This document shows, one piece after another, positions 6,270-42,429 of a stretch of DNA of 64,000 bases. Numbering within the stretch: position 1 is the first letter of the stretch; every line of letters starts with the position of its first letter. The DNA is from a virus. A program made the position numbers and the translations under genes. The stretch lies in IMG/VR virus record IMGVR_UViG_3300037471_000902, positions 32,001-96,000 of that record. One strand, written 5' to 3'. The notes beneath the pieces are model-generated. The model was not told the origin of the DNA and searched no databases. It was given only the letters and a program-made list of their open reading frames with translations.

Positions 6270-6679
6270 CAAAGCACCGCATTCCACCAAAACCTACATG
6301 GTTTGACACAGTTCCAGAAGGAACGTGTCGTTGGTGCAATGCGGTTGTCGGTTTGACTAAGACTGGCAGAGTTAGCAAAAGTCGCTGGCATCCAAGCTGT
6401 TTTGAAGAGTACGAATTACTTTTCTGGCCAAGTGCTACACGTAAAGCAGTTTGGAAGCGAGACAAAGGTGTTTGCTTTGAATGCAAGAAGCAGTGCGATA
6501 AGAAGGGTAAGAATGGGTGGGATCTTGACCATAAGGTCCCACTTATTGAGGGCGATGGCAGCCTTTCATTCTGGCAGATGGGAAATTTGCAAACCCTCTG
6601 TCGAGAGTGTCACAAGGCAAAGACAGCAAGAGAAGCAACTGAGCGTGCAGCTCGAAGGAAGCTAAATGAAGCTAAATGA
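6266..6679 (+). CDS. HNH endonuclease
   Basis: CFEC...WDLDHKVPL...NLQTLCRECHKAKT, a zinc-binding HNH signature. Confidence 0.9.
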   Translation: MTKHRIPPKPTWFDTVPEGTCRWCNAVVGLTKTGRVSKSRWHPSCFEEYELLFWPSATRKAVWKRDKGVCFECKKQCDKKGKNGWDLDHKVPLIEGDGSLSFWQMGNLQTLCRECHKAKTAREATERAARRKLNEAK

Positions 6680-7253
6680 AATCATGGACGCATCGAGCGC
6701 TATCGATATTCATCAGGAATTTGCAGTAGTAAAAGCATTCAGGGCAACCATTTTAGGCACTAGTCGCGATTACGCGACATATCCATTGCCAAAGGGAACT
6801 GTAGTTAAGGTGACAAGCATTCATAACGGTTACGTGCGTTTTTCTACAGGTGACGAGTACACGTTAACCATGACAGAAAATGCTTTTAGGAAGCATATGA
6901 TGAAGCGGGCCGAGTATAGTAGGCAGTGGATGAAGGATTTGAATGAGCAACACACATACAAGCCTCAGCAACAGCTCGCTGTCATTGGCGAGTTCAGCGC
7001 CACTCCAATTAAGAACATTTTCAAGAAGTGGCATCCGTCAAATCGACAGAATCCCGGAATCCGAGTTTTCTCAAAGGACACGCATGATTTCCAATGGAAC
7101 ATCATGTTCGTTAAACAGGAAGGAGATAAGGTATACTTTGATTCTGGTACATGGCGATGGATGGCTGACGCAGCACAATTTTACTCATGCACGAAAGACA
7201 TGAAGATGTGGCGTGGTACTAATTTTCTAAATGATTTGAGTGATGAAGAGTGA
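6666..7253 (+). CDS. Tandem two-domain member of a dispersed small beta-rich paralog family (putative internal head protein)
   Basis: Leader MKLNEIMD; two units of about 95 aa ending WMKDLNE and FLNDLSDEE. Confidence 0.7.
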   Translation: MKLNEIMDASSAIDIHQEFAVVKAFRATILGTSRDYATYPLPKGTVVKVTSIHNGYVRFSTGDEYTLTMTENAFRKHMMKRAEYSRQWMKDLNEQHTYKPQQQLAVIGEFSATPIKNIFKKWHPSNRQNPGIRVFSKDTHDFQWNIMFVKQEGDKVYFDSGTWRWMADAAQFYSCTKDMKMWRGTNFLNDLSDEE

Positions 7254-7268
7254 GTGCCTAAAATTCTG

Positions 7269-7304
7269 AAAAGGGTGTGCATTAAATAACAAGTACACCT
7301 TTTT
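7269..7304 (+). promoter_or_regulatory. TAAATA late-promoter motif in the loop of a 12-bp hairpin
   Basis: aaaagggtgtgc-attaaataacaa-gtacaccttttt with two G-U pairs; TAAATA at 7283-7288. Confidence 0.55.
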
Positions 7305-7309
7305 TGTTT

Positions 7310-7978
7310 ATGAAATTCAAATTTGACTATCCTGAGCTAATGACTGAAACAGTCAATGGCATGCGTATCTACATTACACCTCAAGGTGGTGCATATCCCA
7401 GCATCACAACTGTCCTGGGAAAGACAATGCCTGAAGAGAAGGTGAAAGCACTTGCTAATTGGGCAAATGCGATCGGTCAACTGAATGCGAAGAAGAAAAC
7501 CCAGGACGCAGCCGATCGAGGCACTGCAGTGCACACGCTCATTGAGCGATTCTTGAATGGTGAGGAAGAGTTCTCATCAAGTGAATTCTCTGCTGAAGCC
7601 CTCAACATGTTCAATGCGTTGAAGGTCAAGCTAAAAAAGATCGATGAGATTTGGTGCCAGGAAGTAGGCTTGTACTCTGACCTGCTCGCTCTCGCCGGAC
7701 GTGTAGATTGTATTGGTGTCTACAAGGGAGAGGAAGCAATCATTGACTTCAAGACATCTTCTAGGCTAAAGAGTCAGGAAGACATTGAAGATTATCGGTT
7801 TCAACTGTGTGCCTACGCGCTCATGCACAACGAGATGTTTGGCACCAATATCAATAAGGGCGTTATCTTAATGACGTCAGCGGCTGGTTTCCCGCAAGAG
7901 TTCCATGTAGATTTGATGCCTTACGTAGATAGACTATTTGATCGCGTACAAGACTTCTACAAGAAAATGGCACTATGA
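7310..7978 (+). CDS. PD-(D/E)XK exonuclease (Cas4/MGME1-like phage exonuclease)
   Basis: YPSITTVL, RGTAVH, E..LYS...AGRVDCIG, IIDFKTS, QLCAYA motifs. Confidence 0.9.
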   Translation: MKFKFDYPELMTETVNGMRIYITPQGGAYPSITTVLGKTMPEEKVKALANWANAIGQLNAKKKTQDAADRGTAVHTLIERFLNGEEEFSSSEFSAEALNMFNALKVKLKKIDEIWCQEVGLYSDLLALAGRVDCIGVYKGEEAIIDFKTSSRLKSQEDIEDYRFQLCAYALMHNEMFGTNINKGVILMTSAAGFPQEFHVDLMPYVDRLFDRVQDFYKKMAL

Positions 7979-8467
7979 ATGAAACAAGTCGCCCAGCTAC
8001 ATGGGGATTTCACGCTTGTTTATGCTGACATAAATGGAGTTGAATCCTACGGATTAATGGAAAATGACAAGCTTGTCGCCTTTTGCAAGGTTGAACCTAC
8101 AACAGTTTGTGGCGTAGATTACAAGAAGCTTATTGTCCTATTCACACTATCTAGTTCTCGTGGACTTGGATACTCTCTAATCTTGCTCTATGGCATGAAA
8201 GAGAGCAATATCACACCAATACTGGTTGATGATGCAATCTTTGACGGTGGTTGGGCAGTCATTAAAAAATTAGCACAAAACAAGGCTAATCTATCTGTCA
8301 AGAAGCTTGACAAAAACACTGGCAACGTTTCTGATTTTGATGATTCAAATCCACGTCGAAATCACGCGTTCATTTTAGAAAATGATGGGATTGGCTTCTA
8401 CACCGACTATACTAAATATGGAATGGGTAAAGCCTATTACTATCTTTTTGACGGTGAACTACTATAG
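7979..8467 (+). CDS. Possible GNAT-fold acetyltransferase-like protein
   Basis: LFTLSSSRGLGYS resembles GNAT motif A (R-G-x-G). Confidence 0.45.
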   Translation: MKQVAQLHGDFTLVYADINGVESYGLMENDKLVAFCKVEPTTVCGVDYKKLIVLFTLSSSRGLGYSLILLYGMKESNITPILVDDAIFDGGWAVIKKLAQNKANLSVKKLDKNTGNVSDFDDSNPRRNHAFILENDGIGFYTDYTKYGMGKAYYYLFDGELL

Positions 8468-8491
8468 ATTTGAAGAGTATAAAATACTAAC

Positions 8492-8842
8492 ATGAAAGTC
8501 AACCAGCTACTTCACGACTCTCCTCTAAAAGGTGAGAAGCGTATTGCACTCAACATGCTTGACATTACGAGCGATTTCGTTTTTGCCCGAGTCGAGGGAA
8601 TTAACATAAGAGGCAACTGGATTGGCGCTAGAATTCCAGAAGGCACCCTCATTGAAGTGACTGGCGAAAGAGAAGACGAGATGGGCGAACCAGTTGTGGT
8701 CTTCTCAATTGTTCATGGTGCCGCTGACGAGGAGTATTGCGTCCATGTCAATGATTTTGATGATCGCTTTGTGAAAATTGAAGAACTAGAAGAAAAGAAG
8801 CGCGAACGCAAGTTGAAGTGGTTCAATGATTTGCAGGACTAA
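8492..8842 (+). CDS. Member of the small beta-rich paralog family
   Basis: Leader MKVNQLLHD; IPEGTLIEV core; ends WFNDLQD. Confidence 0.7.
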   Translation: MKVNQLLHDSPLKGEKRIALNMLDITSDFVFARVEGINIRGNWIGARIPEGTLIEVTGEREDEMGEPVVVFSIVHGAADEEYCVHVNDFDDRFVKIEELEEKKRERKLKWFNDLQD

Positions 8843-9381
8843 AACCAATTCGGAATAGTCCGATCCCTCACCTTCCCATCCCACTTGGCGAATCTCAGCT
8901 TATCGAGACGATAAAAGTTTCGATAGCTCTCCACCACATCATCTGACTGATACTGCTCCGGCATTGCCTGGGGTGGGTCAATCCACTCTGCCTCGGGAAT
9001 GTTCTTGGGCGGATTCTCCAACACGTGTCCTAGTCGAATGAACACGTTATGGTCTCTCCCGTACCGCCAGTGATATTCAAACGCTAGAGCAGTGAAGAGC
9101 TCAAAAAGCCACATATAGTGCGCAGAACTTTGGCGCGCCCACTTGACGCATGGATGATTGATGTGAGTGGACTTGAACAGCTTCATTTCCATTCGAGGAT
9201 CGTCCATCCTGTAGCGAATCAGCTTTCGTCCTGACGAATCATCCACGTAAGGTTTACCGTCAAGAACACGGTGCGCAGTAGAGAGAATTTGTGCGTACTC
9301 AATAACCATCTTGAGTACGTGTTTGGAGCAGTGCATTTCTGCACACCTTACCACATCACGATCTAATATGAAAACGTTCAT
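8839..9381 (-). CDS. Pyrimidine-dimer DNA glycosylase family (DenV/endonuclease V-like)
   Basis: MNVFILD start, HVLKMVIEYAQILSTAH, THINHPC..W, PPQAMP, YRNFY. Confidence 0.85.
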   Translation of the reverse strand: MNVFILDRDVVRCAEMHCSKHVLKMVIEYAQILSTAHRVLDGKPYVDDSSGRKLIRYRMDDPRMEMKLFKSTHINHPCVKWARQSSAHYMWLFELFTALAFEYHWRYGRDHNVFIRLGHVLENPPKNIPEAEWIDPPQAMPEQYQSDDVVESYRNFYRLDKLRFAKWDGKVRDRTIPNWF

Positions 9382-9387
9382 ACGCAT

Positions 9388-9396
9388 ATTTTATCA
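9388..9396 (-). promoter_or_regulatory. Extended -10 (TGnTAAAAT) sigma70-type promoter
   Basis: TGATAAAAT on the minus strand, 6 nt before the ATG at 9381; the same 9-mer occurs at 37510-37518. Confidence 0.45.
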
Positions 9397-9547
9397 CTTT
9401 GATTCCAGTTTAATTTCAGCGCCATGAAGTTACAATATAAGGATTACGGGTAAAAACCATGATAACACTAGAAGATCTCAAGGGTGCATTCATGATCTGC
9501 TTGCAGCAGTACGCGCTCGTGGACCAGCAAGTTTTAAGGAATAAAAA

Positions 9548-9769
9548 ATGCCTAACTATACTCGCACTGTTTCTGTCAAGATCTCGTCTGAAGAACTCAC
9601 AGACATTCTGAAACAACATCTGAAGATCCCAGCGGATGCAAAGGTGACCTTCACTACTCGTGAAGTCAGCACTGACTATTTTGGTCGGGACTCACGAACA
9701 GTTTTTGATGGTGTTCGGATTGAATACGAGGAAAAACCCGTCGCAGAAAAATTTGAAAGGGGGTTCTAA
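9548..9769 (+). CDS. Small hypothetical protein
   Basis: 73 aa, AAGGA RBS upstream. Confidence 0.7.
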   Translation: MPNYTRTVSVKISSEELTDILKQHLKIPADAKVTFTTREVSTDYFGRDSRTVFDGVRIEYEEKPVAEKFERGF

Positions 9770-9834
9770 TGGCTTGGCAAACAATGAAGACTGCCAAACG
9801 TGAAATTCTACGAATCGCGTTTTTGCAAAACTAA
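9769..9834 (+). CDS. Possible 21-aa micro-ORF (MAWQTMKTAKREILRIAFLQN)
   Basis: TAATG overlap with the upstream stop; fills the intergenic gap. Confidence 0.35.
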   Translation: MAWQTMKTAKREILRIAFLQN

Positions 9835-9853
9835 TTTATAACGGGAGAAAATA

Positions 9854-9916
9854 ATGGGACTTTGGGCACTACCACTCTTTTTCAGCATCATGTTTCGAGT
9901 TTGGTTTGGACTATGA
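9854..9916 (+). CDS. 20-aa hydrophobic micropeptide (MGLWALPLFFSIMFRVWFGL)
   Basis: GGGAG RBS at 9843-9847; ATGA overlap with the next gene. Confidence 0.5.
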   Translation: MGLWALPLFFSIMFRVWFGL

Positions 9917-10092
9917 GCCGAAACGATATCACAGGCGACTCACTCGTCAGCAAAACCGCAAACCAAGCCTATCGCGACGGCTGGGATCGTATCTTCGGCA
10001 AGAAGAAAGAAGAGAAGAAGCAGGCACCAGAAGTTGGTGAAGAGGGTTACTCCGAGTATATTACTCGGATCATGGCGCAGAAAAAGCCATGA
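9913..10092 (+). CDS. Small phage hypothetical protein
   Basis: MSRNDITGDSLVSK...YRDGWDRIFGKK, a pattern recalled from other phage small proteins. Confidence 0.7.
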   Translation: MSRNDITGDSLVSKTANQAYRDGWDRIFGKKKEEKKQAPEVGEEGYSEYITRIMAQKKP

Positions 10093-10138
10093 ACTAATGC
10101 GCCATCAGAAGCGCATAAGTACAATAAAGGAGACATCA

Positions 10139-10906
10139 ATGCAACTGCGAACAGCAGATATCAGGAAGACTTTTGTTCGTCTTCTTGCAGAAGAAAAATT
10201 CACACAAATTAATCGTGAATCCAGCATGACTGGGCTGGTTGGTAATACAACCATCGAAATCCTTGGTGCTAACTTCATTGCAGACGAGGACAGCATCTTT
10301 GGTGAAGTGAATTGGGATTACGTTAAGCGCGAAGAAGAGTGGTATAACTCCCAGTCATTGAACGTGAATGACATCCCTGGTGGTGCCCCAGCAATTTGGA
10401 AAGCCGTGGCAGACAAGGACGGCTTTATCAACAGTAATTACGGCCACTTGATCTATTCTCCAGAGAATGGCTTTAAAAAGCCGGCCGCATCAGGTTCGTC
10501 CATGCGTGAGGCTGAAACTGATGGATGGATGTCTCAGTACAAGTGTACACTTCAAGAACTAACGCAGAGCCCCTCTTCTCGTCGTGCTTGCATGATCTAC
10601 ACTCGCCCGCAGATCTGGCTGGACTATAACAAGAATGGTAGATCTGACTTCATTTGTACCAATGTGGTTCAATATCTGATTCGTGATGGCAAAGTCCATG
10701 CTGTTGTTCAAATGCGAAGCAATGACGCTGTGTTCGGATACAAAAACGACAAAGTGTGGCAGCAGCATGTTCTTGAGAAGCTGACATCTGATTTGAATGC
10801 GGCTGGAAATAACTACGAAGTTGGTGATTTGATTTGGAACGTAGGCAGTCTTCATGTTTATGCAAGACACTACAACCTTGTTGACCCCGTCAAGTACGCA
10901 AAATGA
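10139..10906 (+). CDS. dCMP hydroxymethyltransferase (T4 gp42-like, thymidylate synthase fold)
   Basis: INSNYG, SRRACMIYTRP, SDFICTNVVQYLIRD, MRSNDAVFGYKND..WQ, GSLHVYARH; AAGGAG RBS before ATG 10139. Confidence 0.85.
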   Translation: MQLRTADIRKTFVRLLAEEKFTQINRESSMTGLVGNTTIEILGANFIADEDSIFGEVNWDYVKREEEWYNSQSLNVNDIPGGAPAIWKAVADKDGFINSNYGHLIYSPENGFKKPAASGSSMREAETDGWMSQYKCTLQELTQSPSSRRACMIYTRPQIWLDYNKNGRSDFICTNVVQYLIRDGKVHAVVQMRSNDAVFGYKNDKVWQQHVLEKLTSDLNAAGNNYEVGDLIWNVGSLHVYARHYNLVDPVKYAK

Positions 10907-11124
10907 AACTGAGCTTCTACATTAGTGGACAAGCCGGATACGCGTTCTGTGATTCAGTGGAACTGGATTCTCGCATTCCAGTTCCACGAATTGGAGAGAA
11001 GGTTCTTCTAAAATGTGCTGATGAATACTATCGCCAGCACATCGTGACGGACATTGTCCACTCCTACTGTACTGAAACGATTTTCATCTACGTCCTTCCA
11101 CCCTCAAACGAAACAGATATATGA
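10903..11124 (+). CDS. Hypothetical protein
   Basis: 73 aa, ATGA coupled; IPVPRIGEKV motif. Confidence 0.65.
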   Translation: MKLSFYISGQAGYAFCDSVELDSRIPVPRIGEKVLLKCADEYYRQHIVTDIVHSYCTETIFIYVLPPSNETDI

Positions 11125-11546
11125 GCCTTCTTTCTGAAATCAAAACTCTGCAGCTTACGGCTAGAAAAAATCGTGATGCTATTGCCTCAGCACTTCTGAC
11201 AACACTGCTTGGCGAAGCCAGCATGCCCGGCAAGAATGATGGAAATCGTGAATCGACAGACATGGAAGTTGTTGCGGTTATCAAGAAGTTTGTGAAGAAC
11301 ACGCAAGAAATGATCCGACTTGCTGACAACGAAACCTCTCGAAAGGAGCTCTCTATTTTGGAAAGTTTCCTGCCGAAGCAGTTGACTGAGGATGAACTTC
11401 GCCGGGCGTTTAGCGAAATCATTGAAAACAACGTCGTCAAGAATATGGGCGCATATATGAACACGCTCAAAACATTCTATCCAGGGATGTATGATGGTGC
11501 GACAGCTAGTCGCATTTTGAAGGAACTTCTTGGTATGCAGAAGTGA
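11121..11546 (+). CDS. GatB/YqeY domain protein
   Basis: ARKNRD...LTTLLGE...EVVAVIKKFVK...ELSILESFLPKQLTEDEL...NMG. Confidence 0.85.
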   Translation: MSLLSEIKTLQLTARKNRDAIASALLTTLLGEASMPGKNDGNRESTDMEVVAVIKKFVKNTQEMIRLADNETSRKELSILESFLPKQLTEDELRRAFSEIIENNVVKNMGAYMNTLKTFYPGMYDGATASRILKELLGMQK

Positions 11547-11734
11547 TTCAATACGTTCTCCGTTTTAAGGACAACACATACCACTCGTGTGTCGGTATTG
11601 GAAGTTCTACTGAGGAGAAGGGCATGGCAAAGCGTTATCAATCAATTAAGGAAGCTCAAGACGATGCTAATTTCCTAGTTGATGTTGACGCTATTGTCAT
11701 GGCTAATTCTGAACAAATCGTGAAACGATATTGA
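11543..11734 (+). CDS. Hypothetical protein
   Basis: 63 aa, GTGA coupled. Confidence 0.55.
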   Translation: MIQYVLRFKDNTYHSCVGIGSSTEEKGMAKRYQSIKEAQDDANFLVDVDAIVMANSEQIVKRY

Positions 11735-11739
11735 TCACG

Positions 11740-11769
11740 GTTTTACTGCAGTGTCTCTCGAGCTATAAT
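11740..11769 (+). promoter_or_regulatory. Early (sigma70-type) promoter
   Basis: GTTTTACT-N16-TATAAT, resembling the T4 early promoter GTTTAC...TAnnnT. Confidence 0.5.
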
Positions 11770-11777
11770 AAGAAGAA

Positions 11778-13505: not shown

Positions 13506-13511
13506 ATCAAA

Positions 13512-13763: not shown

Positions 13764-13776
13764 GTCCGGAGGACGA

Positions 13777-14289
13777 ATGAGCGAAGAATTGAAGCCGTGC
13801 CCGTTCTGCGGGAGCGCCCCAAGGCTCCTGCGGTTGGTGGAGGCATACCAGGATGCCGATGGACAGCATGCGGGCGAATACGACGCATGGTTCAACGTGC
13901 AATGCGACAACTGCGGCATTGAGCAGGGCGATGAATACCGATCCAGTGCAATTGCAGCATGGAACAAGCGCGCCTCGCGTGACGCGGAGGTGCAGAGGCT
14001 GCAAAGCCCTTCGTACATGCGACACCAGCCCATAAGCAACTGCGAGTGCGCCGACTGCATCCGATTCTTCCAGCTTGCAGCAATCAGGGGCGACGCTATT
14101 CAGCACGATTTGCTCAAGCTTTCCCAAGAGGTTGAAACTTTGAAAAAGAATCTGAAGGATTGGGAAGATAATGCCAAATATCTCCTTGACTCAACACCTG
14201 GTGCTATTCGCTCATGCTACAAGGGACTCGACGAAAATCTGCTCGAGTCCCTCTGCATTACCTACATCAAGTTACGCGGTCAATCTTGA
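13777..14289 (+). CDS. Lar-family restriction alleviation protein fused to an unknown C-terminal region
   Basis: MSEELKPCPFCG...VQCDNCG...AIAAWNKR; GGAGGA RBS at 13768-13773. Confidence 0.8.
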   Translation: MSEELKPCPFCGSAPRLLRLVEAYQDADGQHAGEYDAWFNVQCDNCGIEQGDEYRSSAIAAWNKRASRDAEVQRLQSPSYMRHQPISNCECADCIRFFQLAAIRGDAIQHDLLKLSQEVETLKKNLKDWEDNAKYLLDSTPGAIRSCYKGLDENLLESLCITYIKLRGQS

Positions 14290-15866
14290 TCGAATTTGAC
14301 CTTATCAGGGGTGCCGGCTTTGCGTTCACCAACATAGATAAAAATGCAGAGCATGTCCAAAAAGTCCTTGAGCGGTTCATGGTGTTCGCGGCTAATGTAA
14401 CTCCGCTTTTCACCAGTGATTTTTGTTCTTAGACTGGCACCAAAGGTCTTACGATCTACATACTGTCCATTGACATAGTCGGTTGTTTTAACACTGTTCG
14501 GTTTTATTTCCACTTTAATGTGGTATGGACTCGAGGCTGCAATTTCTTGGATTGCAGCCTCGATTTTCTTTGCGATGGACGGCATCTTTTTATTCCATTC
14601 AGCAATGTCCTTTGCTACAATCGCCATGAACTTTCTAATTTTCTCTTTGGCGTGTTCTTTTTGATTGACAATGAGGTCATCCTTTTGTTTCCGCAAATTG
14701 TTGGCAAAGTCATCCTGTACGTCATCATCATACAAACCAAGCATTAGATCGATCTTTCTAGTGTCAGGTGCTCTCTGCGATATGAGATTGCGAAGTTGCG
14801 CGGTCTCATTAAAAACTGGTGGGTAGATTATTAGTGGATTAACTTTTTCTGGTTTAAACCAGCCAGTGCCATCACCATTATGACGGTAGAGCCCAGTTTT
14901 AGCAGCATTTGTACTAAAGCCCTCATGTTCATGGGGTTTGCTGCGGGCGAGGGCATGATACTGTGGTCCAAATTTTAGCTTCTCGTGTAGGATCTCCATA
15001 ATATCAGACATGATCTCATCACGGCCTTTGGCAGCTTGGACCTCACCATCAAAGATGAAAGTTACCTTATTGCTATCACTCCTGTTAAGGAATTTATCAA
15101 GATTGAACGTCTTGATGTCATCAAATCCATAAAGATTGCTTGCGCCAGGACCGTCAATCCACCCTATTAGATGGAATCCTGATTCCTCAGCCTTGGCTAA
15201 CCATTTCTCAATAGTTTCCTTCTGAAATTGTTTGACTAATTCTCTGTGACTGTCATCTGTCTTAACGCTTGGTTTTTTAAATGACCTAGTCTTAGGGTCA
15301 TACTGTTCCTGAAATTTGAATGGACTCACCTCAATCGTGACGCTCTTAATCTTCCTTTTCTCTAAACCATAGGCTGTCTTCTTGGCATTAGGAGGAGACT
15401 TCATCGAGCTATTGACTGATCCGATTTCAAGAAAGTCCGTCAATTTATCTTTTCTATTTGCTGGTTTTGACGGATCATCTGGCATTCTTGATTGATAGGA
15501 GTTAGCAATCTCCTTGAATGCGCGTGCAAGAACAGAAGATGGGGTTCCTGTTCCAGCTGTTGCTTCGGTCAGATCATCAAGAAACTTCTTATCATAGTCT
15601 TTCTTCAGCACCGTATCTCTGTTAATGTAGTAACGATACGCCCAGAATAGTTCGGGACTGTCTTTCTTTTGGAAGAGAATCTTATCATATCCAGGCATTT
15701 CGCCTGGCACGATTGAATGAACAGTAAGTTCAGTGCCAGGAAAAACATATGTGCCATCCGTTTCACCATGAAAGGAAAGCGCGTAAAAGTTCTCTTCTGT
15801 CGAGATTAGTTTTGTACCCGGTTCTAGGTCTAGATACGCTTCAGAAATAAATTGCTTGAATCTCAT
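14280..15866 (-). CDS. Putative internal head polyprotein: N-terminal paralog-family domain plus a large unknown domain
   Basis: Leader MRFKQFISEA; VFPGTELTVHSI core; first domain ends FLDDLTEA. Confidence 0.7.
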   Translation of the reverse strand: MRFKQFISEAYLDLEPGTKLISTEENFYALSFHGETDGTYVFPGTELTVHSIVPGEMPGYDKILFQKKDSPELFWAYRYYINRDTVLKKDYDKKFLDDLTEATAGTGTPSSVLARAFKEIANSYQSRMPDDPSKPANRKDKLTDFLEIGSVNSSMKSPPNAKKTAYGLEKRKIKSVTIEVSPFKFQEQYDPKTRSFKKPSVKTDDSHRELVKQFQKETIEKWLAKAEESGFHLIGWIDGPGASNLYGFDDIKTFNLDKFLNRSDSNKVTFIFDGEVQAAKGRDEIMSDIMEILHEKLKFGPQYHALARSKPHEHEGFSTNAAKTGLYRHNGDGTGWFKPEKVNPLIIYPPVFNETAQLRNLISQRAPDTRKIDLMLGLYDDDVQDDFANNLRKQKDDLIVNQKEHAKEKIRKFMAIVAKDIAEWNKKMPSIAKKIEAAIQEIAASSPYHIKVEIKPNSVKTTDYVNGQYVDRKTFGASLRTKITGEKRSYISREHHEPLKDFLDMLCIFIYVGERKAGTPDKVKFDQD

Positions 15867-16744
15867 TTCAGTTCTTCTGGAATTGGAAGCTTGGCTTCTT
15901 TGAGTGATTTTATTGCATCAGCAAAAATCTCTTGAGCATCTTTTCTAGCCCTAATTTGCTTGATGACGTCTTCGGCAGTCATGATGTCTTTTGCTGATAC
16001 ATTCTGTCCAAATAGGAATTTGGCAACAGTATCTGGATCAGTGATGATATCTGGATTTGGGTCAAACTTAATATTCTTTCCAGAGATAGCCTGGGCGTGC
16101 ATGGCTAATTGGCCTGGATCCATCTTATTCATCGTCTTTCCAAACGTCTTTGTTTCCTTGTCATATTTTGCGGCTTTAAACAGCCGCTCTACGCCAGTGT
16201 CTAATTTGATAGCTCTTGACGCACGAGCTACGACTTCACCCTTATACTTCATGATGAAATCTTTTCCACCTTCATGAGTATGGCGCATCGCTGCCATGAG
16301 AAGGAAGTTTCTAACTACGCCTGGATACTTAGACTTGTCACCTTCGGAAGAATAGTAGATGAACTTTGCCCATGTTTTGTCATTCACAAACATTAAGTCA
16401 ACCTGAACTTTCTTTCCGCCCACATCTACTGCGTATGAGCCGATTTTTGTTCCCTTGTTGAACGTGCCCTCATTGTTTACCAATTCCATCATTTTCAAAT
16501 TGGCTTGTTCGCTAGACATCTCATCATTTCCTATGACGATGTCAATGTCACCGCTATCATTCTTTTTACCCGCAAGAGTGAGGTGAACCGTTCCAAGAGT
16601 GCGGTTCTTGATATCGGGCAAATTGAGAGTTCGACCCACGATGTCAAGGGCTTTCTCAATGTCTTCTTTCGTTGCTCGCTGAGTGTTGAACTTCTCAGTT
16701 GCAGCACCGCCCTCAGCAAGAAATTGTTTGAATGTTGTGACCAT
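15863..16744 (-). CDS. Pol-beta-superfamily nucleotidyltransferase with a capsid-targeting-like leader
   Basis: LGT...SGDIDIVI (hG[ST]...DxD) and third Asp in VQVDLMF; leader MVTTFKQFLAE. Confidence 0.75.
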   Translation of the reverse strand: MVTTFKQFLAEGGAATEKFNTQRATKEDIEKALDIVGRTLNLPDIKNRTLGTVHLTLAGKKNDSGDIDIVIGNDEMSSEQANLKMMELVNNEGTFNKGTKIGSYAVDVGGKKVQVDLMFVNDKTWAKFIYYSSEGDKSKYPGVVRNFLLMAAMRHTHEGGKDFIMKYKGEVVARASRAIKLDTGVERLFKAAKYDKETKTFGKTMNKMDPGQLAMHAQAISGKNIKFDPNPDIITDPDTVAKFLFGQNVSAKDIMTAEDVIKQIRARKDAQEIFADAIKSLKEAKLPIPEELK

Positions 16745-33632: not shown

Positions 33633-33686
33633 TTCTAGTTAAAATATTTCTTTCATAACATTTCACATCAGTCATCTAAATAGCTG

Positions 33687-35112: not shown

Positions 35113-35156
35113 ACTGTCTTTCAGATAAATACAATCTGATAAGCAGCAGGCATGCC

Positions 35157-35816
35157 ATGGACTTCCTTTTCGACATTGTAAAGCAACTAGCTGCAAGCCT
35201 AAGCCCAACGCAGTTTTTGTGGATACTCGGCATTATTGCGGGGACCACGTTTTTCTTGGTGCGGTTTATCCTAGCAAACAAAAAGAAAATTGTTTCTTGG
35301 TTGACTGGACAAAAAGAAGTAGATGAAACACAGGTTGCATTGCAGGACATCAAGGCCGCACTTTTAAAACTGTTGACAACGCAAGATTTTCAACAGGACT
35401 TAGCTCGCCTCGATGTTAGCATAAAACTGGCGCTCACTGCCCAAGCTGCTGATTTGGAGGCTATTCGCGAAAAACTTGTTGAGCTTTCATCTATCAAGAC
35501 AGAACTTGTTACAGCAAGTCGACATATTCTTGACGAATTGTCAGAGATTAAGCATACTATTCATGTGCACAATGACGGAAGTCAGACGCAATATCGTGAT
35601 GTGCTTTTGCAGCTGAATAAGAGCCATGAACTCATTGCTCGTAACCTGATGCAAATTGAAAAGATGGACGAGTTTTTCAAAGCCACCGTGCCTGAATTCC
35701 GTGGTTATCATCATGAGCTTGGCACTGAGCTGAATAATCTCAGCCGTGACATTGCGCTGGTTGAGCGCAGCATTCAGATGCAGATGAACTCTGGGTTGGC
35801 AGTAAAACTCAGATAA
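35157..35816 (+). CDS. Membrane-anchored coiled-coil protein
   Basis: TM segment FLWILGIIAGTTFFLVRFIL followed by heptad repeats; TAAATA at 35126-35131 in a hairpin loop. Confidence 0.7.
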   Translation: MDFLFDIVKQLAASLSPTQFLWILGIIAGTTFFLVRFILANKKKIVSWLTGQKEVDETQVALQDIKAALLKLLTTQDFQQDLARLDVSIKLALTAQAADLEAIREKLVELSSIKTELVTASRHILDELSEIKHTIHVHNDGSQTQYRDVLLQLNKSHELIARNLMQIEKMDEFFKATVPEFRGYHHELGTELNNLSRDIALVERSIQMQMNSGLAVKLR

Positions 35817-35845
35817 ATACAGAACATTCTTCATAATATACACAT

Positions 35846-36484
35846 ATGGCCGTCAAATCCCCTTTCATCATTCGACCAGATTTTTTATCACCATTAATGT
35901 GTGAGAGAATCCTTGCCGATCTGGATACTACTCCTAATTTTGACGTAGAGGGTGATCCTCTCAAGCTGGAGAGACACAATTTGGCATGGGAACAGACGAT
36001 CATTGATGCCTTTCATGAGGTTGTTCCAGAGATTGAGGAACGATATAGCTGTGTGTATAGAGGACTAGAAAAACCTCTGTTCCAACTCTATCCAGAGAAT
36101 GCTAAGGTTCCAGCTGAACAGCCCGGATGTGCTAATAGCAAATACATCCGCAAGCGGTGGGTCCAAACTCGAGACATTGATTTAGTCGGTTTTATCTGGC
36201 TAAAGGATTTCAACTCCAGTGTTCCCCTTGATCCGCGTGTTGAGGTCTTCGGTGGAAAGCTAGAATTTCCCGCCTATAACTTCTCGCTTGTGCCTCAGAA
36301 GGGTACGCTTGTCATGTTTCCTGCAGGCCCACACTTTATTACAGTTACATCACCGATTTTACTAGGATCGCTACAGCAAGTAAAATTAACTGTAAGCGTA
36401 AAAACAACTGAAGGTGGTCAGTGGTTTTATCAACCGACAAACTTTCCAGGCAAATGGCAAGATTGGCTCAATGAGCATCTTTAA
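35846..36484 (+). CDS. 2OG-Fe(II) oxygenase-fold protein, apparently lacking the canonical HxD...H ligands
   Basis: DFLSPLMCE start, GGKLEFP, PQKGTLVMFPA (prolyl-hydroxylase-like core). Confidence 0.65.
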   Translation: MAVKSPFIIRPDFLSPLMCERILADLDTTPNFDVEGDPLKLERHNLAWEQTIIDAFHEVVPEIEERYSCVYRGLEKPLFQLYPENAKVPAEQPGCANSKYIRKRWVQTRDIDLVGFIWLKDFNSSVPLDPRVEVFGGKLEFPAYNFSLVPQKGTLVMFPAGPHFITVTSPILLGSLQQVKLTVSVKTTEGGQWFYQPTNFPGKWQDWLNEHL

Positions 36485-36492
36485 GGAATAAT

Positions 36493-36942
36493 ATGAAGAT
36501 TCGCGACATCATTGAAGGAAACGTTACCCACATAAAGCGCGTTCTTGATCTGGCAACAGGTGAGTGGAAGATGATTGACATGTCTAAGGCAAAGCCAATC
36601 AGCATGATGGCTGCACTTGGCGATGAAGAAGGTGCAGCCCTCCAGGAAGCTGGAGTTCATCTGGCTGAGAAGCCAGATGATTGGGAATATCTTGATGATC
36701 ACTACGTCATTACTCCTTCTAAGATGCGAAAGGTTGAAGAAATCTTAGGACGCGAACTTGATCGTGTAGCTGGTGAAACTCTTTTTGGTGGTGTAAAACC
36801 TCGAGGTCCTCTTGCTCAACTTAGCAAGGAACCGAAGAGAGGGATTTTTGTCATTCAGTTCGTGCAGGATGGCAGCAAATATCTTGTAAACACATTGCAC
36901 GCCAACTCATACATTCGTATGTGGGCTAAGATTGACGTATGA
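36493..36942 (+). CDS. Hypothetical protein with a capsid-targeting-like leader
   Basis: MKIRDIIE; internal MMAALGDEE...LQE. Confidence 0.7.
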   Translation: MKIRDIIEGNVTHIKRVLDLATGEWKMIDMSKAKPISMMAALGDEEGAALQEAGVHLAEKPDDWEYLDDHYVITPSKMRKVEEILGRELDRVAGETLFGGVKPRGPLAQLSKEPKRGIFVIQFVQDGSKYLVNTLHANSYIRMWAKIDV

Positions 36943-37493
36943 AACTTCACAAAATTCTTCTAGAACAGGAACGTGGCTGGCGCGTTCTGCATGGCGCGGA
37001 AGCTGACAAAGATGAGTACGTTGGTGCTCGGGTTGGTACACTAGATGACACAACCTACGACGAGCTTGTTGCTATTTTAGGTGAACCAACTGAAAAAAAT
37101 GTCGGTGATGATTTTGATAAGTGTGCTGTCAAATGGGTCATTCTTGGAAATGATGGAACAGTTTGCCGCATTTATGACTACAAGCAGTCCACACAGTACA
37201 CTGGCGACGAAGACTTAGAATTCAGCAATCTCCATGATGATGAGGATGTTGCTAGGGAATTGGAAATGAAACAACATGGAAGGTCGCAAACTGAAGCTGA
37301 GAGATTGGGGGTTTCGCGTGTCAATTCGTGGAGTATTGGTGGTGGAGCAAACGACATTGAAAAGAGATTGCATGATCGGTTCGGGCAAAGGATGACAGCT
37401 GGCGTCGCCGTTGAATTAGCCAAAAAAATATTTGGTGATAAAGCTGTTCACAGCATCTTTGAGAAACCCTTTAGGGACATGTTTAACAGTTAA
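36939..37493 (+). CDS. Phage protein (TTYDELV..LGEPT...IYDYK...WSIGG type) with a capsid-targeting-like leader
   Basis: MKLHKILLE leader; ATGA coupled. Confidence 0.7.
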   Translation: MKLHKILLEQERGWRVLHGAEADKDEYVGARVGTLDDTTYDELVAILGEPTEKNVGDDFDKCAVKWVILGNDGTVCRIYDYKQSTQYTGDEDLEFSNLHDDEDVARELEMKQHGRSQTEAERLGVSRVNSWSIGGGANDIEKRLHDRFGQRMTAGVAVELAKKIFGDKAVHSIFEKPFRDMFNS

Positions 37494-37545
37494 TTTAAAA
37501 CTCTTGCTGTGATAAAATCATACAGTCGAGGACCCCTCTTGATGT

Positions 37546-38109
37546 ATGAGCATTGATGATATCGAACTTTCAGGATCCTTCTTTCGAAGACTTGCTCCAT
37601 CCGAACAGCAAGTCTTCCTTCAAAATCTCGCAACGCGTCGTAGACGATATGAGGCAATTAGCTCAGCGTTACGAGGTGAATGCGGTCTTTCCGAAGAGTG
37701 CAAGAAAAAACTTCTCATTGTGGGCGACCGACCCGGTCCATCCAGACCCACAGATCCTCGATTTCATCATACACCTTTCTATTCCACATTCCACTGTTCA
37801 GGATGGCTCAACGCACTTCAGGTTGATGAAGGAACGCCAGAGGACGAGCTCGTCTGGATTAACTCTACAAATGAGTTGGGATGCAATCTCCCTGGAAGAA
37901 TCCTCACAGCGCTAGAACCATGGGGAATTATCTTGCTGGGCGGACATGCAAGTAAGTGGTTTGAAAGCACTGATGGGAATGAGAACTGGCGAATTCAATT
38001 CCGTTTTGACCATCCTCAGTACTGGAAGCGGTTTCGGAACAAGGATCCATATCCTATCTTCCGAGAGATGAATGAGTTGATTGCCGGACGCAGAGACAGA
38101 TTGTGGTAA
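37546..38109 (+). CDS. Uracil-DNA-glycosylase-superfamily protein
   Basis: LLIVGDRPG, PF...SG.WL, WIN, IILLG..A, HPQY motifs; extended -10 TGATAAAAT at 37510-37518. Confidence 0.7.
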   Translation: MSIDDIELSGSFFRRLAPSEQQVFLQNLATRRRRYEAISSALRGECGLSEECKKKLLIVGDRPGPSRPTDPRFHHTPFYSTFHCSGWLNALQVDEGTPEDELVWINSTNELGCNLPGRILTALEPWGIILLGGHASKWFESTDGNENWRIQFRFDHPQYWKRFRNKDPYPIFREMNELIAGRRDRLW

Positions 38110-38147
38110 TTTGATTGTCTGAAGGGGTCAGATGAGGCCCAGAGATG

Positions 38148-38177
38148 AAAAAAGGGAGCCTATGAAAGCTCCCTTTT
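38148..38177. terminator. Bidirectional intrinsic terminator at a convergence point
   Basis: aaaaaagggagc-ctatgaaa-gctccctttt between convergent genes. Confidence 0.8.
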
Positions 38178-38625
38178 AAGTTGGGTTGGATGTCTCTGGG
38201 AGGATCAGATCCTCACCATCAAAAATTTTGACTGTCCCATAACCAAAAACCTTCTCAAGGGCTTCTCTGTAGCGAAGCTGCAGACTTGGCAAGACAAAAC
38301 TCGCATGTGAGGAGCGTGATGACTTGACGGTAACATCAGCATGAACTTGATGACCACGTGGATACATCTTCTCCTTCTTAAGAAGTTCCTTCACGTGATT
38401 AGCTACTTCAGGATCATCGCTCAAATCACTTATCAAGTCATGCTTCAAATCCTTTAGATCACCCTTTCTTCGCAGTCCATGCACATAGACGTCCTCGCAA
38501 TTGCCTAGAGCCTTCTTCAAGGCATCTATGATTTCCGTCTCACTCATCTCTCTACTCAGCGTGATGACATAGTAGATGGCATAGTATGAGTAATTCTCGG
38601 CAAGAAATTGTTTGAACGTGTTCAT
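38176..38625 (-). CDS. Putative internal head protein
   Basis: Leader MNTFKQFLAE; internal LISDLSDDPEV. Confidence 0.7.
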   Translation of the reverse strand: MNTFKQFLAENYSYYAIYYVITLSREMSETEIIDALKKALGNCEDVYVHGLRRKGDLKDLKHDLISDLSDDPEVANHVKELLKKEKMYPRGHQVHADVTVKSSRSSHASFVLPSLQLRYREALEKVFGYGTVKIFDGEDLILPETSNPT

Positions 38626-40205
38626 GCGCTTTCTCTAATTTTTCGGCGGTAGTAATCCACACCCTGTAGATCAATACCATTCACGGCATTTCCTACGCCG
38701 TCATGGTGAATAAGACCATATGCAAACTCGCCCTTTGTAAGCGAAGGATAGCGAGCACTGTGTGGCGTCTGCTTGATTGGTTTTCCAGCAATCGTGGTTT
38801 TGCCGGACGCATTGTAGCCGTTCCAGTAGGGCTTTATTTCAGCCTTGTAGAATTGAATCATTGCTTTTGTGGCTTTATACGCATCACAGCGGTCTGCGCA
38901 TGCTGTAGTGCCATGATATTTCAATGCAATTTTGTCAAGCATTTGATAGAGCCCCATCGCAGAACTTGTTGGGTTCTTAGCATAGGGGTTATATCTAGAC
39001 TCAATCTTTGCAATGAACTTGATAAGCTTTTTGTCCTCAGCATCTAGTGAACCATCCTCATCAAGTGCACGCTCAATTTCAGCATTCACCGCGTTGGCAT
39101 CTGGAATCACACTGGGGGTGCAATCAGATACAGATGGCATCTGATTGCTAGATGGTGGAGTAGTGCTATTTGGTTCAGATGTTGTGGGATCAGATCCAAT
39201 CACTAGTGGACAGCCACCACCGCTTCTAGCATTCACTTCGTGCTGCGTAAGTGCTGGTGACGTGTTAGTTCTTGTTTGATCTGCTGGCTGCGATCCGTCA
39301 TTCTGGACGGGTGGGGTAATTATTATAGACCCACGAATATACGGGGTCGGATCAACTGGTGTACTACCACCTAAATGCAGCTCAAAGTGCAGGTGGGGAC
39401 CAGTGCTAGCACCCGTAGATCCTTCAAGCGCGATGACTTGTCCTTGACGAACTTTTTGTCCATTGCTTACAAGAAGTTGTTTGCAGTGGGCGTATAGCGT
39501 CATGCCTAGAAGTTTACCGTCAGCTGCCTTGTGATTGATTCTAATGCAGTTGCCATATCCACCAGCTGATCCAGCAAAGCACACGTCTCCATCAGCAGCA
39601 GCTACAATTTTGCCTTGACCCTTTGCACCAGGAGACATGGCAACCCAGTCTTGACCCTTGTGGAATTTCTGAACTTTAGAGATCGGATGAATGCGTGGGC
39701 CGAAACCGCTGTTAACCTTTGCTGATCCTGACGAAGGAACGTACGGTTGGACTAGGGAGAAGGACTCCCCTTTTGTTGGTTTGCTAGGAGAGAAAGTGAA
39801 TTGGCGAGAGTCAATGACGCCCTCGCTATCATTCGCGGTGATTGTAATTTGGAACGTTGCACCTTCTTGCGAGGTGTCAACAGTACCACTCAACTTGCCA
39901 GTTGATGAGACAAACGAGAGTCCAGGAACCGATGGACTCATTGTCCACGATGTTGCTGTGCGAGGTCCCTGTGAAAGCGTAAACGTCTCATCGACTTTCA
40001 ATTGAGCGTCAGCAGTGATAGAGGTGTTTTGAATTCTATTGACTAAATCTTGGCGCGCGTCGTCCTTTGGACCCGCATCATTTCCGCGCAATGCGTAGCA
40101 ATCAATGTTTTCACCGGGCAAAATCTCAGTAAAAGGAACTCCATTGTTTGGAGGAATCCTCGTGGGACGTTCATTTACTACCGGTTTTTCGCAACCACAA
40201 CTCAT
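38622..40205 (-). CDS. Multidomain peptidoglycan hydrolase: Ig-like + M23 peptidase + lysozyme/transglycosylase-like
   Basis: PGLSF..STGKLSGT (Ig-like); HKGQD and GPHLHFE (M23); IESRYNPYAKN..SSAMGLYQ (SLT-like). Confidence 0.85.
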   Translation of the reverse strand: MSCGCEKPVVNERPTRIPPNNGVPFTEILPGENIDCYALRGNDAGPKDDARQDLVNRIQNTSITADAQLKVDETFTLSQGPRTATSWTMSPSVPGLSFVSSTGKLSGTVDTSQEGATFQITITANDSEGVIDSRQFTFSPSKPTKGESFSLVQPYVPSSGSAKVNSGFGPRIHPISKVQKFHKGQDWVAMSPGAKGQGKIVAAADGDVCFAGSAGGYGNCIRINHKAADGKLLGMTLYAHCKQLLVSNGQKVRQGQVIALEGSTGASTGPHLHFELHLGGSTPVDPTPYIRGSIIITPPVQNDGSQPADQTRTNTSPALTQHEVNARSGGGCPLVIGSDPTTSEPNSTTPPSSNQMPSVSDCTPSVIPDANAVNAEIERALDEDGSLDAEDKKLIKFIAKIESRYNPYAKNPTSSAMGLYQMLDKIALKYHGTTACADRCDAYKATKAMIQFYKAEIKPYWNGYNASGKTTIAGKPIKQTPHSARYPSLTKGEFAYGLIHHDGVGNAVNGIDLQGVDYYRRKIRESA

Positions 40206-40208
40206 GGT

Positions 40209-40814
40209 TTATTTTCCTAGCTTGCACTTGAACTTACCATCGTGGAAGTAAAGAGTCATCATTACCTGCATCGTTAAGTATGGGAAATATTCATCATTTG
40301 TAAATTCATTCCACGCATCAATTACACAATTGATGAAATGTTCACCAGTGATTTCATTTGGTGTTAAGTCATCACCCATATAACGACTAAAACCCCTCGT
40401 GGCCATGGCGCGCATTGAGGCACTGGCAATGCCAATGCGTTTGAGTTCTCTAAAAAGAAGATTCAAGCTATCAACAGCATCAAGTAAAGATTGTTCAATC
40501 TGTGATTTTTGTTCTGGTATCTCAAGGTCTTCATTTCCATCATAAAGATTGTCTAGGAAATGTTTGTTGGAATCGGCTTGCTTAATTTGGCAAATGACTG
40601 AAATGTTATCATCATTTTTAAATTCGTGCACATTAGTAAAAACCGAGAGATCAATTTGCTCATTATTTGACTGTAACAGATTTACATATCCTGCTGGCGA
40701 GTTGGGATGCAATCTCCCTGGCACCTTGCGGTTAAACGCAGCCTCAAGCATTGTTCTCACAATATTACTAAGAATTGTCCCGCGCCGATAACTGGCCACT
40801 TCGTTTAATTTCAT
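40209..40814 (-). CDS. Hypothetical protein with a capsid-targeting-like leader
   Basis: MKLNEVA; internal FLDNLYD. Confidence 0.65.
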   Translation of the reverse strand: MKLNEVASYRRGTILSNIVRTMLEAAFNRKVPGRLHPNSPAGYVNLLQSNNEQIDLSVFTNVHEFKNDDNISVICQIKQADSNKHFLDNLYDGNEDLEIPEQKSQIEQSLLDAVDSLNLLFRELKRIGIASASMRAMATRGFSRYMGDDLTPNEITGEHFINCVIDAWNEFTNDEYFPYLTMQVMMTLYFHDGKFKCKLGK

Positions 40815-41107
40815 TTTGATGATTGTTGATCGAGCTTCTTCTGTTCGTCGCTTAGAAACTTTGCGATTTCATGAAGTTTTGCTTCGAGTTCTTCAACGCG
40901 CATATTCATTTCGGCTGCCCAACGAGCAACGTCAGATTGATCTGCCTTGTCCCAATCAACACTAGGTAATGGAGCTGGAATAGTAAGCGATTCTTTGGGA
41001 GGAACGCGAAGAATGTATTCCTGCTTTACAACAGTTGTTGGTTCAATCTTTTCCACTGACGCACAACCCGTCAGCAGAATCATTAATGCTAAAGCGATCT
41101 TCTTCAT
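40811..41107 (-). CDS. o-spanin (Rz1-like lipoprotein)
   Basis: Signal peptide with lipobox LLTGC, Pro-rich middle; directly downstream of the i-spanin. Confidence 0.8.
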   Translation of the reverse strand: MKKIALALMILLTGCASVEKIEPTTVVKQEYILRVPPKESLTIPAPLPSVDWDKADQSDVARWAAEMNMRVEELEAKLHEIAKFLSDEQKKLDQQSSK

Positions 41108-41514
41108 TTCTTCTTCCTTTTCTGGATGTCCTTTAGAGTCTCACGAAGAACGGGAGCAATAGTTCCGTTGTTTCGTGGATCCTTCAGCATCTCATCAATT
41201 TTCTTGTTAGCGTCAGCGAGATTTGCTTGGCTGACTTGCTTTTGTTTAGCGAGTTCTGCAATCAACGCTTGAGCATCCTTGCGCTCTTCCAAAAGCTTCT
41301 TGTTAGCTTCTACCGTAGATTGATTTGCCTTAGCAGCTTCTTCAAGATTAAACTTCAGCGTGGTATTGTTGGCTTTCAAAATAGCGTTGTTCTCTTGAAG
41401 CGTAGACACTTGCTTCTCAGCAGAGTGGAGTTGAAACCTTGTGAGACCCAGAATTAGTGCGAGTACCAAAACTGCACCAATGAGGACCTTTGTCAAAATG
41501 CTACCGGTGAACAT
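41104..41514 (-). CDS. i-spanin (Rz-like)
   Basis: N-terminal TM helix and a long coiled coil. Confidence 0.8.
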   Translation of the reverse strand: MFTGSILTKVLIGAVLVLALILGLTRFQLHSAEKQVSTLQENNAILKANNTTLKFNLEEAAKANQSTVEANKKLLEERKDAQALIAELAKQKQVSQANLADANKKIDEMLKDPRNNGTIAPVLRETLKDIQKRKKK

Positions 41515-41546
41515 ATTTTCCCTTTTACTTCATCCATGACTGAACA

Positions 41547-41867
41547 TCATAGCTTCTTGCTCGTCAGACCTCGCATAAACTTCATATGGTCGTCACGTAC
41601 TTTCTGTTTCGCAAAGCCAGCAGGTTTTGCAAACTTTTCAAACTTAGCCCGATCCATTTGAAAGTCGAGATTAGGATTACTAGCATCACAGAATTGTACA
41701 ACCGTGTCAGTTAGATCAGTGATTTGGTACAGGTGATCATCGTAGACCGCTACTTCACCTTTTTTAAAGAATGAATATGCGCGCGTCGAAGTTTTGAATT
41801 CAAATTCCATATCTACTTCAAGCGTCATTTCGACTATCAATGACCCCAATTCTTGTAGAAGTTTCAT
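41547..41867 (-). CDS. Member of the small beta-rich paralog family
   Basis: Leader MKLLQELGSLIVE (ATGA coupled at 41867); ends KFMRGLTSKKL. Confidence 0.65.
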   Translation of the reverse strand: MKLLQELGSLIVEMTLEVDMEFEFKTSTRAYSFFKKGEVAVYDDHLYQITDLTDTVVQFCDASNPNLDFQMDRAKFEKFAKPAGFAKQKVRDDHMKFMRGLTSKKL

Positions 41868-42094
41868 AGAGTTCTGCGTGATGCAGTAGTTAGGGCGCGG
41901 AGAGCCGCGTTGAACGCACAAGGTTCGACACGAAGGTTACCCAAATCATAGTCATTTATGACTGATTCATCAACTTCATTGAAGTGGAAAATTCCCTTGT
42001 TGCCAATCTTCTCAATGTAGTCTAGGCGATAGCCTAAAAACTTCAAGGAAGCTGCTAGAAGAATGTCTTGGGTTTCGATGGTCTTTTTGGACAT
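41864..42094 (-). CDS. DUF5659-like small protein
   Basis: ETQDILLAASLKFLGYRL..IEK.GNKGIFHF; late-promoter hairpin upstream. Confidence 0.6.
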   Translation of the reverse strand: MSKKTIETQDILLAASLKFLGYRLDYIEKIGNKGIFHFNEVDESVINDYDLGNLRVEPCAFNAALRALTTASRRTL

Positions 42095-42096
42095 GT

Positions 42097-42138
42097 TCTT
42101 TCCTATAGATTGATCAGATATTTATGATCTAGGAAAGA
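42097..42138 (-). promoter_or_regulatory. TAAATA in a hairpin loop whose 3' arm contains the RBS
   Basis: tctttccta...gatca-gatattta-tgatc-taggaaaga; motif at 42119-42124. Confidence 0.6.
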
Positions 42139-42144
42139 TTGGGA

Positions 42145-42429
42145 CTAGCTTTTTAATGAATTCAGGAAGGCACGATCAAATTCACGTTTCGGCGACGTCG
42201 AATTAAGGAATGTTTTCTCGTCAAGATCGAATAATCCAGCATCAACATCAGTCGCGTCGATAAAATAGACGCGTCCATTCTTTCTTTCCTTAACAAGGAT
42301 TTTGTGTCCTGGGGAGAAATAATTGTCAGGAGGCGGGACATTCCCGCACTCGCACCCGGCTTCGAAAGGCTTCGTGACAACGAACATGTCGGCACTTTCG
42401 AATAGATCAAATAAATCACAGACTTTCAT
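42145..42429 (-). CDS. Member of the small beta-rich paralog family
   Basis: MKVCDLFDLFE; FVVTKPFEA...FSPGHKILVKERKNGRVYF; ends FLNSLKS. Confidence 0.7.
   Translation of the reverse strand: MKVCDLFDLFESADMFVVTKPFEAGCECGNVPPPDNYFSPGHKILVKERKNGRVYFIDATDVDAGLFDLDEKTFLNSTSPKREFDRAFLNSLKS

Follow-up and report, generated by a model that had tools for sequence, protein, structure and literature searches.

Leader-directed loading of proteins into the phage head, followed by trimming by the prohead protease gp21, is classical T4 biology. Specifically, the T4 proteins IPI, IPII, IPIII, and Alt carry a short N-terminal leader ending in hydrophobic-x-Glu (the T4 capsid-targeting sequence is MKTYQEFIAE), and in Alt, gp21 can also trim at a C-terminal site. 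In the IPIII targeting sequence, residues 8 and 10 govern processing, and Asp at residue 10, the P1 position, blocks gp21 processing but not targeting (PMC9026906). The T4 internal-protein loci are variable slots between conserved genes (PMC3012670). Here, we describe a family of small domains encoded by an uncultured phage. The DNA analyzed, referred to as the window, is a stretch of 64,000 nucleotides, bases 32001-96000 of the 111,857-bp IMG/VR virus record IMGVR_UViG_3300037471_000902, which CheckV scores as 31% complete. Analogous to the T4 internal proteins, most of the family's genes begin with a short leader of the same character, and the encoded proteins are small, fast-evolving, and non-conserved, and reside in variable loci in a lineage that possesses a gp21-type protease. 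The T4 internal proteins, however, are single units receiving one cut behind the leader, whereas this family consists of homologous units in arrays that reach seven members, each followed by a putative cut site. Furthermore, the family's units are not strongly basic, and some members lack a leader.

Phages phiKZ, 201phi2-1, and SPN3US likewise harbor many head-internal proteins, including paralogue families, and cleave them after Glu using a gp21-related protease. These phages belong to a different lineage, no sequence match connects them to the present family, and their cleavage motif, S/A/G-x-E, differs from the family's. Their inner-body and ejection paralogues are separate genes and are not known to form tandem arrays of one unit. 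The cleavage sequence logos for T4, phiKZ, and SPN3US are separate (PMC9026906). Outside the phage world, the nematode polyprotein allergens follow the same design, in which repeated homologous units are cut regularly into many small binders; organism, fold, protease, and biology are unrelated, and the comparison is offered as an analogy only (PMC3079579).

Profile comparisons indicate that the units constitute a real domain family of T4-related jumbo phages, one that is unannotated and lies beyond Pfam-A and PHROGs. The original prediction, made from the letters of the window, had proposed six dispersed paralogous domains in five open reading frames (ORFs). All five ORFs exist where it had placed them and contain the strings it quoted. 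The entire 112-kb fragment carries nine units in eight genes: the six reported earlier and three outside the window. D1 (6666..6947, plus strand; 94 residues) and D2 (6948..7250, plus strand; 101 residues) are the first and the second, terminal, units of the 195-residue product of gene 6666-7253. D1 possesses the leader MKLNEIMD, an SH3-like body, and a C-terminal helix, EYSRQWMKDLNE, that closes with an internal L-N-E joint (6939-6947, plus strand). D2 has no leader of its own, and its helix ends in FLNDLSDEE, that is, in L-S-D, not in Glu. D3 (8492..8839, plus strand; 116 residues) is a single-unit gene that starts with MKVNQLLHD and whose helix ends in KWFNDLQD. D4 (15564..15866, minus strand; 101 residues) is the N-terminal module of the 528-residue protein 14280-15866. 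It opens with a strong T4-like leader, MRFKQFISEA, and closes with an internal L-T-E joint (15564-15572, minus strand), after which come ATAGTG and a 427-residue part that has no match in Pfam or PHROGs scans. D6 (42148..42429, minus strand; 94 residues) is the sole unit of its gene, which belongs to the late structural cluster, and has the leader MKVCDLFDLFE and the helix end REFDRAFLNSLKS. A candidate unit, D5 (41550..41867, minus strand; 106 residues), has the leader-like start MKLLQELGSL and the end KFMRGLTSKKL. Outside the window lie D7 (genome 30932-31195, plus strand) and D8 (genome 11802-12071, plus strand), neither with a leader, and D9 (genome 107862-108191, minus strand; 110 residues), which is concealed beneath an over-long ORF call. 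Two of these three terminate in WLNSLIDLDE and WMQSLLDSD.

Pairwise BLASTP among the six reported units yields nothing significant (best expectation value, E, 0.015 in a six-sequence database), and thus, the family is visible at the profile level only. Leave-one-out hidden Markov models (HMMs) run over the genome's 117 ORFs pick out 6666-7253, 42145-42429, and one extra copy with E of 1e-6 to 1e-7, the score deriving mostly from the last 12-15 residues, a conserved segment termed the tag. When the tag was removed, a first leave-one-out test of the bodies of the phage's own eight units remained within noise. Such results would suit a reading in which there is no family, only chance resemblance among small, beta-rich phage ORFs with a short C-terminal motif in common. 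We consider that reading extremely improbable given what proteins from elsewhere reveal. Specifically, when 1.84 billion representative proteins were searched with a nine-unit profile, the matches comprised the phage's own proteins, 15 real metagenomic outsiders, and one false match (P0021, rejected as low complexity). An HMM was constructed from 37 outsider units with the leader and the tag region removed, and run on 626 proteins from this genome and from G001, a 343-kb IMG/VR record that is the closest complete genome reached. Six of the nine phage units occupy ranks 2-7: D2, the best among the phage's own (E 2.2e-5), D6 (E 1.2e-4), D1 (E 1.4e-4), D9 (E 4e-4), D3 (E 1.5e-3), and D7 (E 2e-3). 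The full outsider HMM finds D6 at E 1.7e-13, D4 at E 1.2e-9, and D3 at E 3.1e-8. D4 is not significant with the body-only model (E 0.59); it aligns over its whole length, 96 columns, with a profile from which it was excluded (hhalign probability 96%, E 4.6e-9). D9 was discovered using a tag-only HMM in all six frames, and its body, which played no part in that search, fits the family pattern. A confident AlphaFold model obtained from a nine-row alignment likewise argues against chance.

The no-family reading is therefore refuted for D1, D2, D3, D4, and D6, five of the six domains originally proposed, which the outsider HMM and, for D4, hhalign place in the family. It may still hold for 41547-41867 (D5) alone. 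D5 ranks first in a single own-family body test (E 0.007); against the outsiders, it gives an HMM E of 0.21 and an hhalign probability of 5.6% (E 0.007), so its membership is not established. D8 is matched by hhalign with 74% probability over the C-terminal 31 columns only. Rank 1 of the outsider body-only search is held by a G001 protein (287420-288022, minus strand). This protein has the leader MELLKQLLALSE and an SH3-like body but no C-terminal tag helix, and its C-terminal half is acidic and unrelated.

Divergence within the family is high, with approximately 20-27% identity among units in alignments. Pfam and PHROGs return nothing real for the phage's own units or for 10 outsiders; a match of D3 to phrog_7063 (E 0.0015) and matches to toxin domains (E ~0.05) were judged to be noise. 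No match exists among GenBank phages by megablast or tblastn with the window, the 528- and 195-residue proteins, or the outsider P0008. A word-based protein search (A1) returned the phage's own proteins only, and a further search with A3 returned nothing. Scans of IMG/VR using the 528-residue, 195-residue, and P0019 proteins, or using a degenerate DNA pattern for D-R-x-W-L-N-S/G-L-K-E, were likewise empty, as were metagenome scans with P0019 and P0011.

The outsiders are mostly arrays of 2-7 units positioned behind a T4-like capsid-targeting leader. P0007 (570 residues) contains six matching stretches, P0008 (684 residues) contains seven, and P0011, P0017, P0023, P0015, and P0019 contain three to five. 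Three outsiders share one contig of 331,996 bp, and three others share one of 25,254 bp.

These arrays expose a regularity at the joints between units. The last amphipathic helix of a unit follows the pattern [DE]-[FYW]-x-[RK]-x-[FW]-[LM]-x-[SGD]-L-x-[ED], and every tag in the outsiders and in the nine units of this genome was scored. An L-x-E end is present at 31 of 36 internal joints and at 0 of 18 terminal ends (Fisher P 3.5e-10, an optimistic value because the units of orthologous arrays are not independent). Internal joints mostly read L-K-E and continue into an acidic linker, and the terminal position is mostly Asp, otherwise Ser or Ile. Four of the five internal exceptions have hydrophobic-x-Glu within the next 7 residues, and the fifth (P0011, residue 269) is apparently a false tag match inside a unit body. 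The same division holds in this genome: L-x-E closes both internal copies, with DLNE and DLTE exactly as originally described, and L-x-D or L-x-S closes each of the seven terminal ones. Glu does occur near terminal ends (LLDKDE, LKDDEV, LSDEE), showing that the contrast between Glu and Asp is specific to the L-x-_ position. The division of internal from terminal copies agrees with published T4 genetics, in which Asp at P1 prevents cutting (PMC9026906). Together, the leader-headed arrays of up to seven units and the distribution of L-x-E strongly back the proposal that these genes encode cleavable head-cargo polyproteins, a reading that is well supported by comparison.

The leader provides a second line of comparison. 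A start of the form M-[KR]-[FLIV]-x-[EQD]-[FL], mostly with Glu a few residues on, is shared by 6 of the 8 family genes in this genome and 12 of 16 outsiders, five of which begin with MRFKQFLES, and in sequence the family leader closely resembles the T4 signal. In this genome, the pattern occurs at 12 of 117 ORF starts versus 1 of 635 internal Met residues, and in G001, at 21 of 507 ORF starts versus 4 of 2232 internal Met residues, amounting to a 23-65 times enrichment at ORF starts. That enrichment, together with the likeness to an experimentally defined signal, bears on the possibility that these are ordinary tandem-SH3-like adaptors of the cytoplasm, neither packaged nor cut at any stage, with the N-terminal motif and L-x-E arising as by-products of helix composition and acidic linkers. 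Some features do suit adaptors. Five single-unit members (D7, D8, P0018, P0022, and P0025) are leaderless, the conserved tag residues lie on one helix face, as simple packing predicts, and the last helix is modeled with high confidence as part of the domain. By-products of composition, however, do not account for Glu that is tolerated near terminal ends and never found at L-x-_ there, yet is nearly fixed at that position in internal joints. We regard the adaptor explanation as quite unlikely. The leaderless members mean that the family is not head cargo only, and the single-unit copies among them point to an additional, cytoplasmic use of the module.

T4-like capsid-targeting starts extend beyond the family. 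Depending on the pattern, they occur in 12-17 of the 117 ORFs here, approximately 1 in ten, and in 21-29 of 507 in G001; large leader-bearing proteins include 1444-5358 (1304 residues), 15863-16744, and 5358-6269. A second short motif, hydrophobic-x-[DNS]-L-[YHISV]-D-[DG]-[DNP], recurs in the middle of leader-bearing proteins, with FSNLHDDED, ISDLSDDPE, LDNLYDGNE, LHDLHDDPD, and MLGLYDDDV as examples. It is present in window genes 36939-37493, 38176-38625, 40209-40814, 42977-43420, and 14280-15866, and in four genes past the window end. In its loose form, the motif has 32 matches versus 13.8 expected, and it resembles the L-x-D-[DPG] ends, predicted to be uncleavable, of the terminal units of the family.

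Structure prediction points to one common fold. AlphaFold2 models D6 from the nine-row alignment with a mean predicted local distance difference test score (pLDDT) of 82 and a predicted template modeling score (pTM) of 0.71. In this model, the leader forms a short, low-confidence helix at the N-terminus, which is followed by five strands, a helix at 71-77, a strand at 78-80, and a helix at 81-93. Within the 195-residue protein (17-row alignment), D1 reaches pLDDT 91-97 over residues 11-90, with strands at 18-21, 25-30, 38-41, 46-53, 56-60, and 66-70, a helix at 71-77, a strand at 78-80, and a helix at 81-95. The C-terminal half of D2 repeats that order (strands 144-152, 155-159, and 164-168, helix 169-175, strand 176-178, helix 179-192), and residues 98-143 of D2 are of low confidence because few rows aligned there. 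The inputs are paralogue alignments, so these models are not independent of the homology hypothesis. In Foldseek searches of the PDB with both models, the top matches listed are mostly SH3 domains or proteins with tandem bacterial SH3 domains (template modeling score, TM, on target 0.6-0.7; E 0.009-0.1), and for D6, SH3 domains or SH3-containing proteins make up almost all of the first 50 listed. The top neighbors are Src-family SH3 domains, Shank3, STAC3, and the tandem SH3b proteins TagH-C and dipeptidyl-peptidase VI. BFVD yields uncharacterized phage proteins only, and leads from the ESM Atlas are weak (the Atlas's own model has pLDDT 0.56, and SH3_3/SH3_4-containing neighbors appear at TM ~0.36). 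None of the Pfam SH3 models (SH3_1, SH3_3, SH3_4, and others) is reported even at E 0.1.

The unit fold is thus predicted to be an SH3-like beta-barrel of approximately 90-110 residues closed by a helix-strand-helix cap, in line with the SH3-like common fold suggested at the outset. As modeled, each unit would resemble an SH3 or bacterial SH3-like domain in having a small, five-stranded barrel of comparable size; classical SH3 domains lack the helix-strand-helix cap, and the family matches no Pfam SH3 model. The C-terminal tag named in the original prediction is modeled not as a loose extension but as the confident, integral last amphipathic helix of the domain. Its conserved residues (positions 2, 6, 7, and 10 of 12) lie on one helix face, an arrangement compatible with packing onto the barrel, with binding of a common partner, or with both. 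A Sso7d-like DNA-binding role found no support: the units are not basic, and no such fold is among the matches listed.

How, then, might the precursors be used? The leader would carry a precursor into the prohead core, where a gp21-type prohead protease would remove the leader and cut after the Glu of the hydrophobic-x-Glu that ends each internal helix. The head would be left with free, compact, folded units of approximately 10 kDa, each ending in its helix and the last ending in an uncleavable L-x-Asp. The released units would remain with the DNA and exit with it at infection. A size of approximately 10 kDa would suit passage through the tail, an argument made previously for T4 IPI* (PMC3012670). 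From the sequence comparisons, we judge that loading into the head and cutting by the protease probably do occur, with a sizable share of doubt. The protease itself is present in the lineage: Peptidase_S77 (PF03420, the T4 gp21-type prohead protease) exceeds the Pfam cut-off in G001 (85 bits) and G002 (90 bits), the complete genomes most closely related to this phage, and in Ralstonia jumbo phage RsoM2USA (103 bits).

Several observations weigh against this proposal, in addition to the non-independence of the array units. The 31%-complete fragment contains no protease, capsid, or any other head gene in the profile scan. D3 has a weak leader with no hydrophobic-x-Glu among its first 12 residues, and D7, D8, and the single-unit outsiders P0018, P0022, and P0025 have no leader at all. 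The Foldseek matches on which the fold assignment draws are weak, none reaching E <=0.001. Finally, a profile search of 45 related IMG/VR records and 8 cultured relatives found no family member, a weak negative because the tagless copy in G001, recovered with a larger local HMM (E 4e-11), escaped it as well.

Cutting could occur without delivery. The arrays might be prohead core or inner-body material that assists in assembling or filling the very large head, is cut during clearance of the scaffold, and has no role in the host cell. T4 core proteins share the leader and cleavage logic, repeated units suit a structural filler, and the net charge of the units is unremarkable (pI 4.8-9.0). Moreover, the relatives 121Q and phAPEC6 contain an internal protein mass, seen by bubblegram imaging as protein embedded in the DNA (PMC7247149). 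Against this explanation, the profile search did not find the family in the majority of close relatives, among them two complete genomes that have the same head genes, and it therefore cannot be essential for building the head. The high divergence of the units and the existence of leaderless copies likewise do not suit core material, and cuts every ~100 residues would produce folded domains, not small peptides able to leave the shell. We consider a purely structural role unlikely.

The most plausible guess, by analogy, is that the units are diversified binding modules, possibly directed against host defense proteins. The analogy to T4 IPI would be functional only. No unit or outsider has a PHROG or Pfam match that would signal homology to IPI, IPII, or IPIII, and IPI entries are absent from the top 50 matches listed in each of the two Foldseek PDB searches. 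We speculate, with more doubt than conviction, that T4-related jumbo phages carry libraries of diversified SH3-like binders in their heads, packaged as polyproteins of homologous units, each unit neutralizing a different host factor, for example, a defense protein. If so, a single leader would bring in as many as seven different units, to be freed by the head protease at the conserved helix-L-x-Glu joint. The units would enter the cell with the DNA, leaderless copies would be the same binders made after infection, and the conserved helix would also serve the protease or the core as an extended element for recognition or docking.

The genomic setting ties the fragment to T4-related giant phages. 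The baseplate wedge protein encoded here shares 43% identity with that of RsoM2USA, also matches those of XacN1, GAP32, CBB, PA5oct, and others, and is 66% identical to that of G001, which is syntenic but inverted. The slots occupied by family genes differ between the studied genome and G001, and the flanking genes are conserved. This variable-slot behavior matches that of the T4 internal-protein loci (PMC3012670). D5 and D6 lie inside a minus-strand late structural cluster, and D9, beyond the window, lies inside a baseplate-gene cluster.

Several neighboring features merit mention. Between leader-bearing genes, a spanin-like pair occupies window positions 40811-41514 (minus strand): 41104-41514, with an N-terminal membrane helix, overlaps the lipoprotein 40811-41107 (lipobox LLTGC), and both members are conserved in G001. 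A Cys-rich, HNH-like ORF (6266-6679, plus strand) has a TAA stop codon overlapping the ATG with which the two-unit gene 6666-7253 starts, and several family genes are similarly start-stop coupled to the gene upstream. The ORF call that conceals D9 belongs to a cytidylyltransferase-like gene (genome 106604-108191; L004:12605-14192, past the window end). At 478 residues, the call is too long, and its first ~58 codons overlap D9 out of frame. The enzyme probably starts at MMNKFEFQSLFE, with an ATG that overlaps the D9 stop, and a CATAAATA string lies ~30 nt upstream of D9. Two G001 proteins are split here. A 2756-residue G001 protein corresponds to three consecutive ORFs (52044-56450, 56513-59674, and 60016-62604; window 52044-62604, minus strand), and an 898-residue one corresponds to two adjacent ORFs upstream of the window (genome 12142-15122, plus strand).

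Among the papers listed in literature searches on capsid targeting, gp21 cleavage, and phage polyproteins, none describes such arrays. What we present as new is a defined, previously unannotated domain family, the tandem arrangement of its homologous units, a conserved helix situated just upstream of the putative cut site, and the contrast between internal Glu and terminal Asp. The family, outside Pfam-A and PHROGs, is now defined by a confident model and approximately 55 units. On head-protease processing, its joints provide a natural experiment of unusual clarity, in which the same helix carries Glu where a downstream unit needs release and Asp where nothing follows. If both cutting and delivery prove true, tandem-unit polyproteins would allow phages to load stoichiometric sets of small proteins using a single targeting signal, and the T4 internal-protein paradigm would be widened. 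The leader, the unit, and the L-K-E joint would then constitute a natural scaffold for loading several proteins into phage heads.

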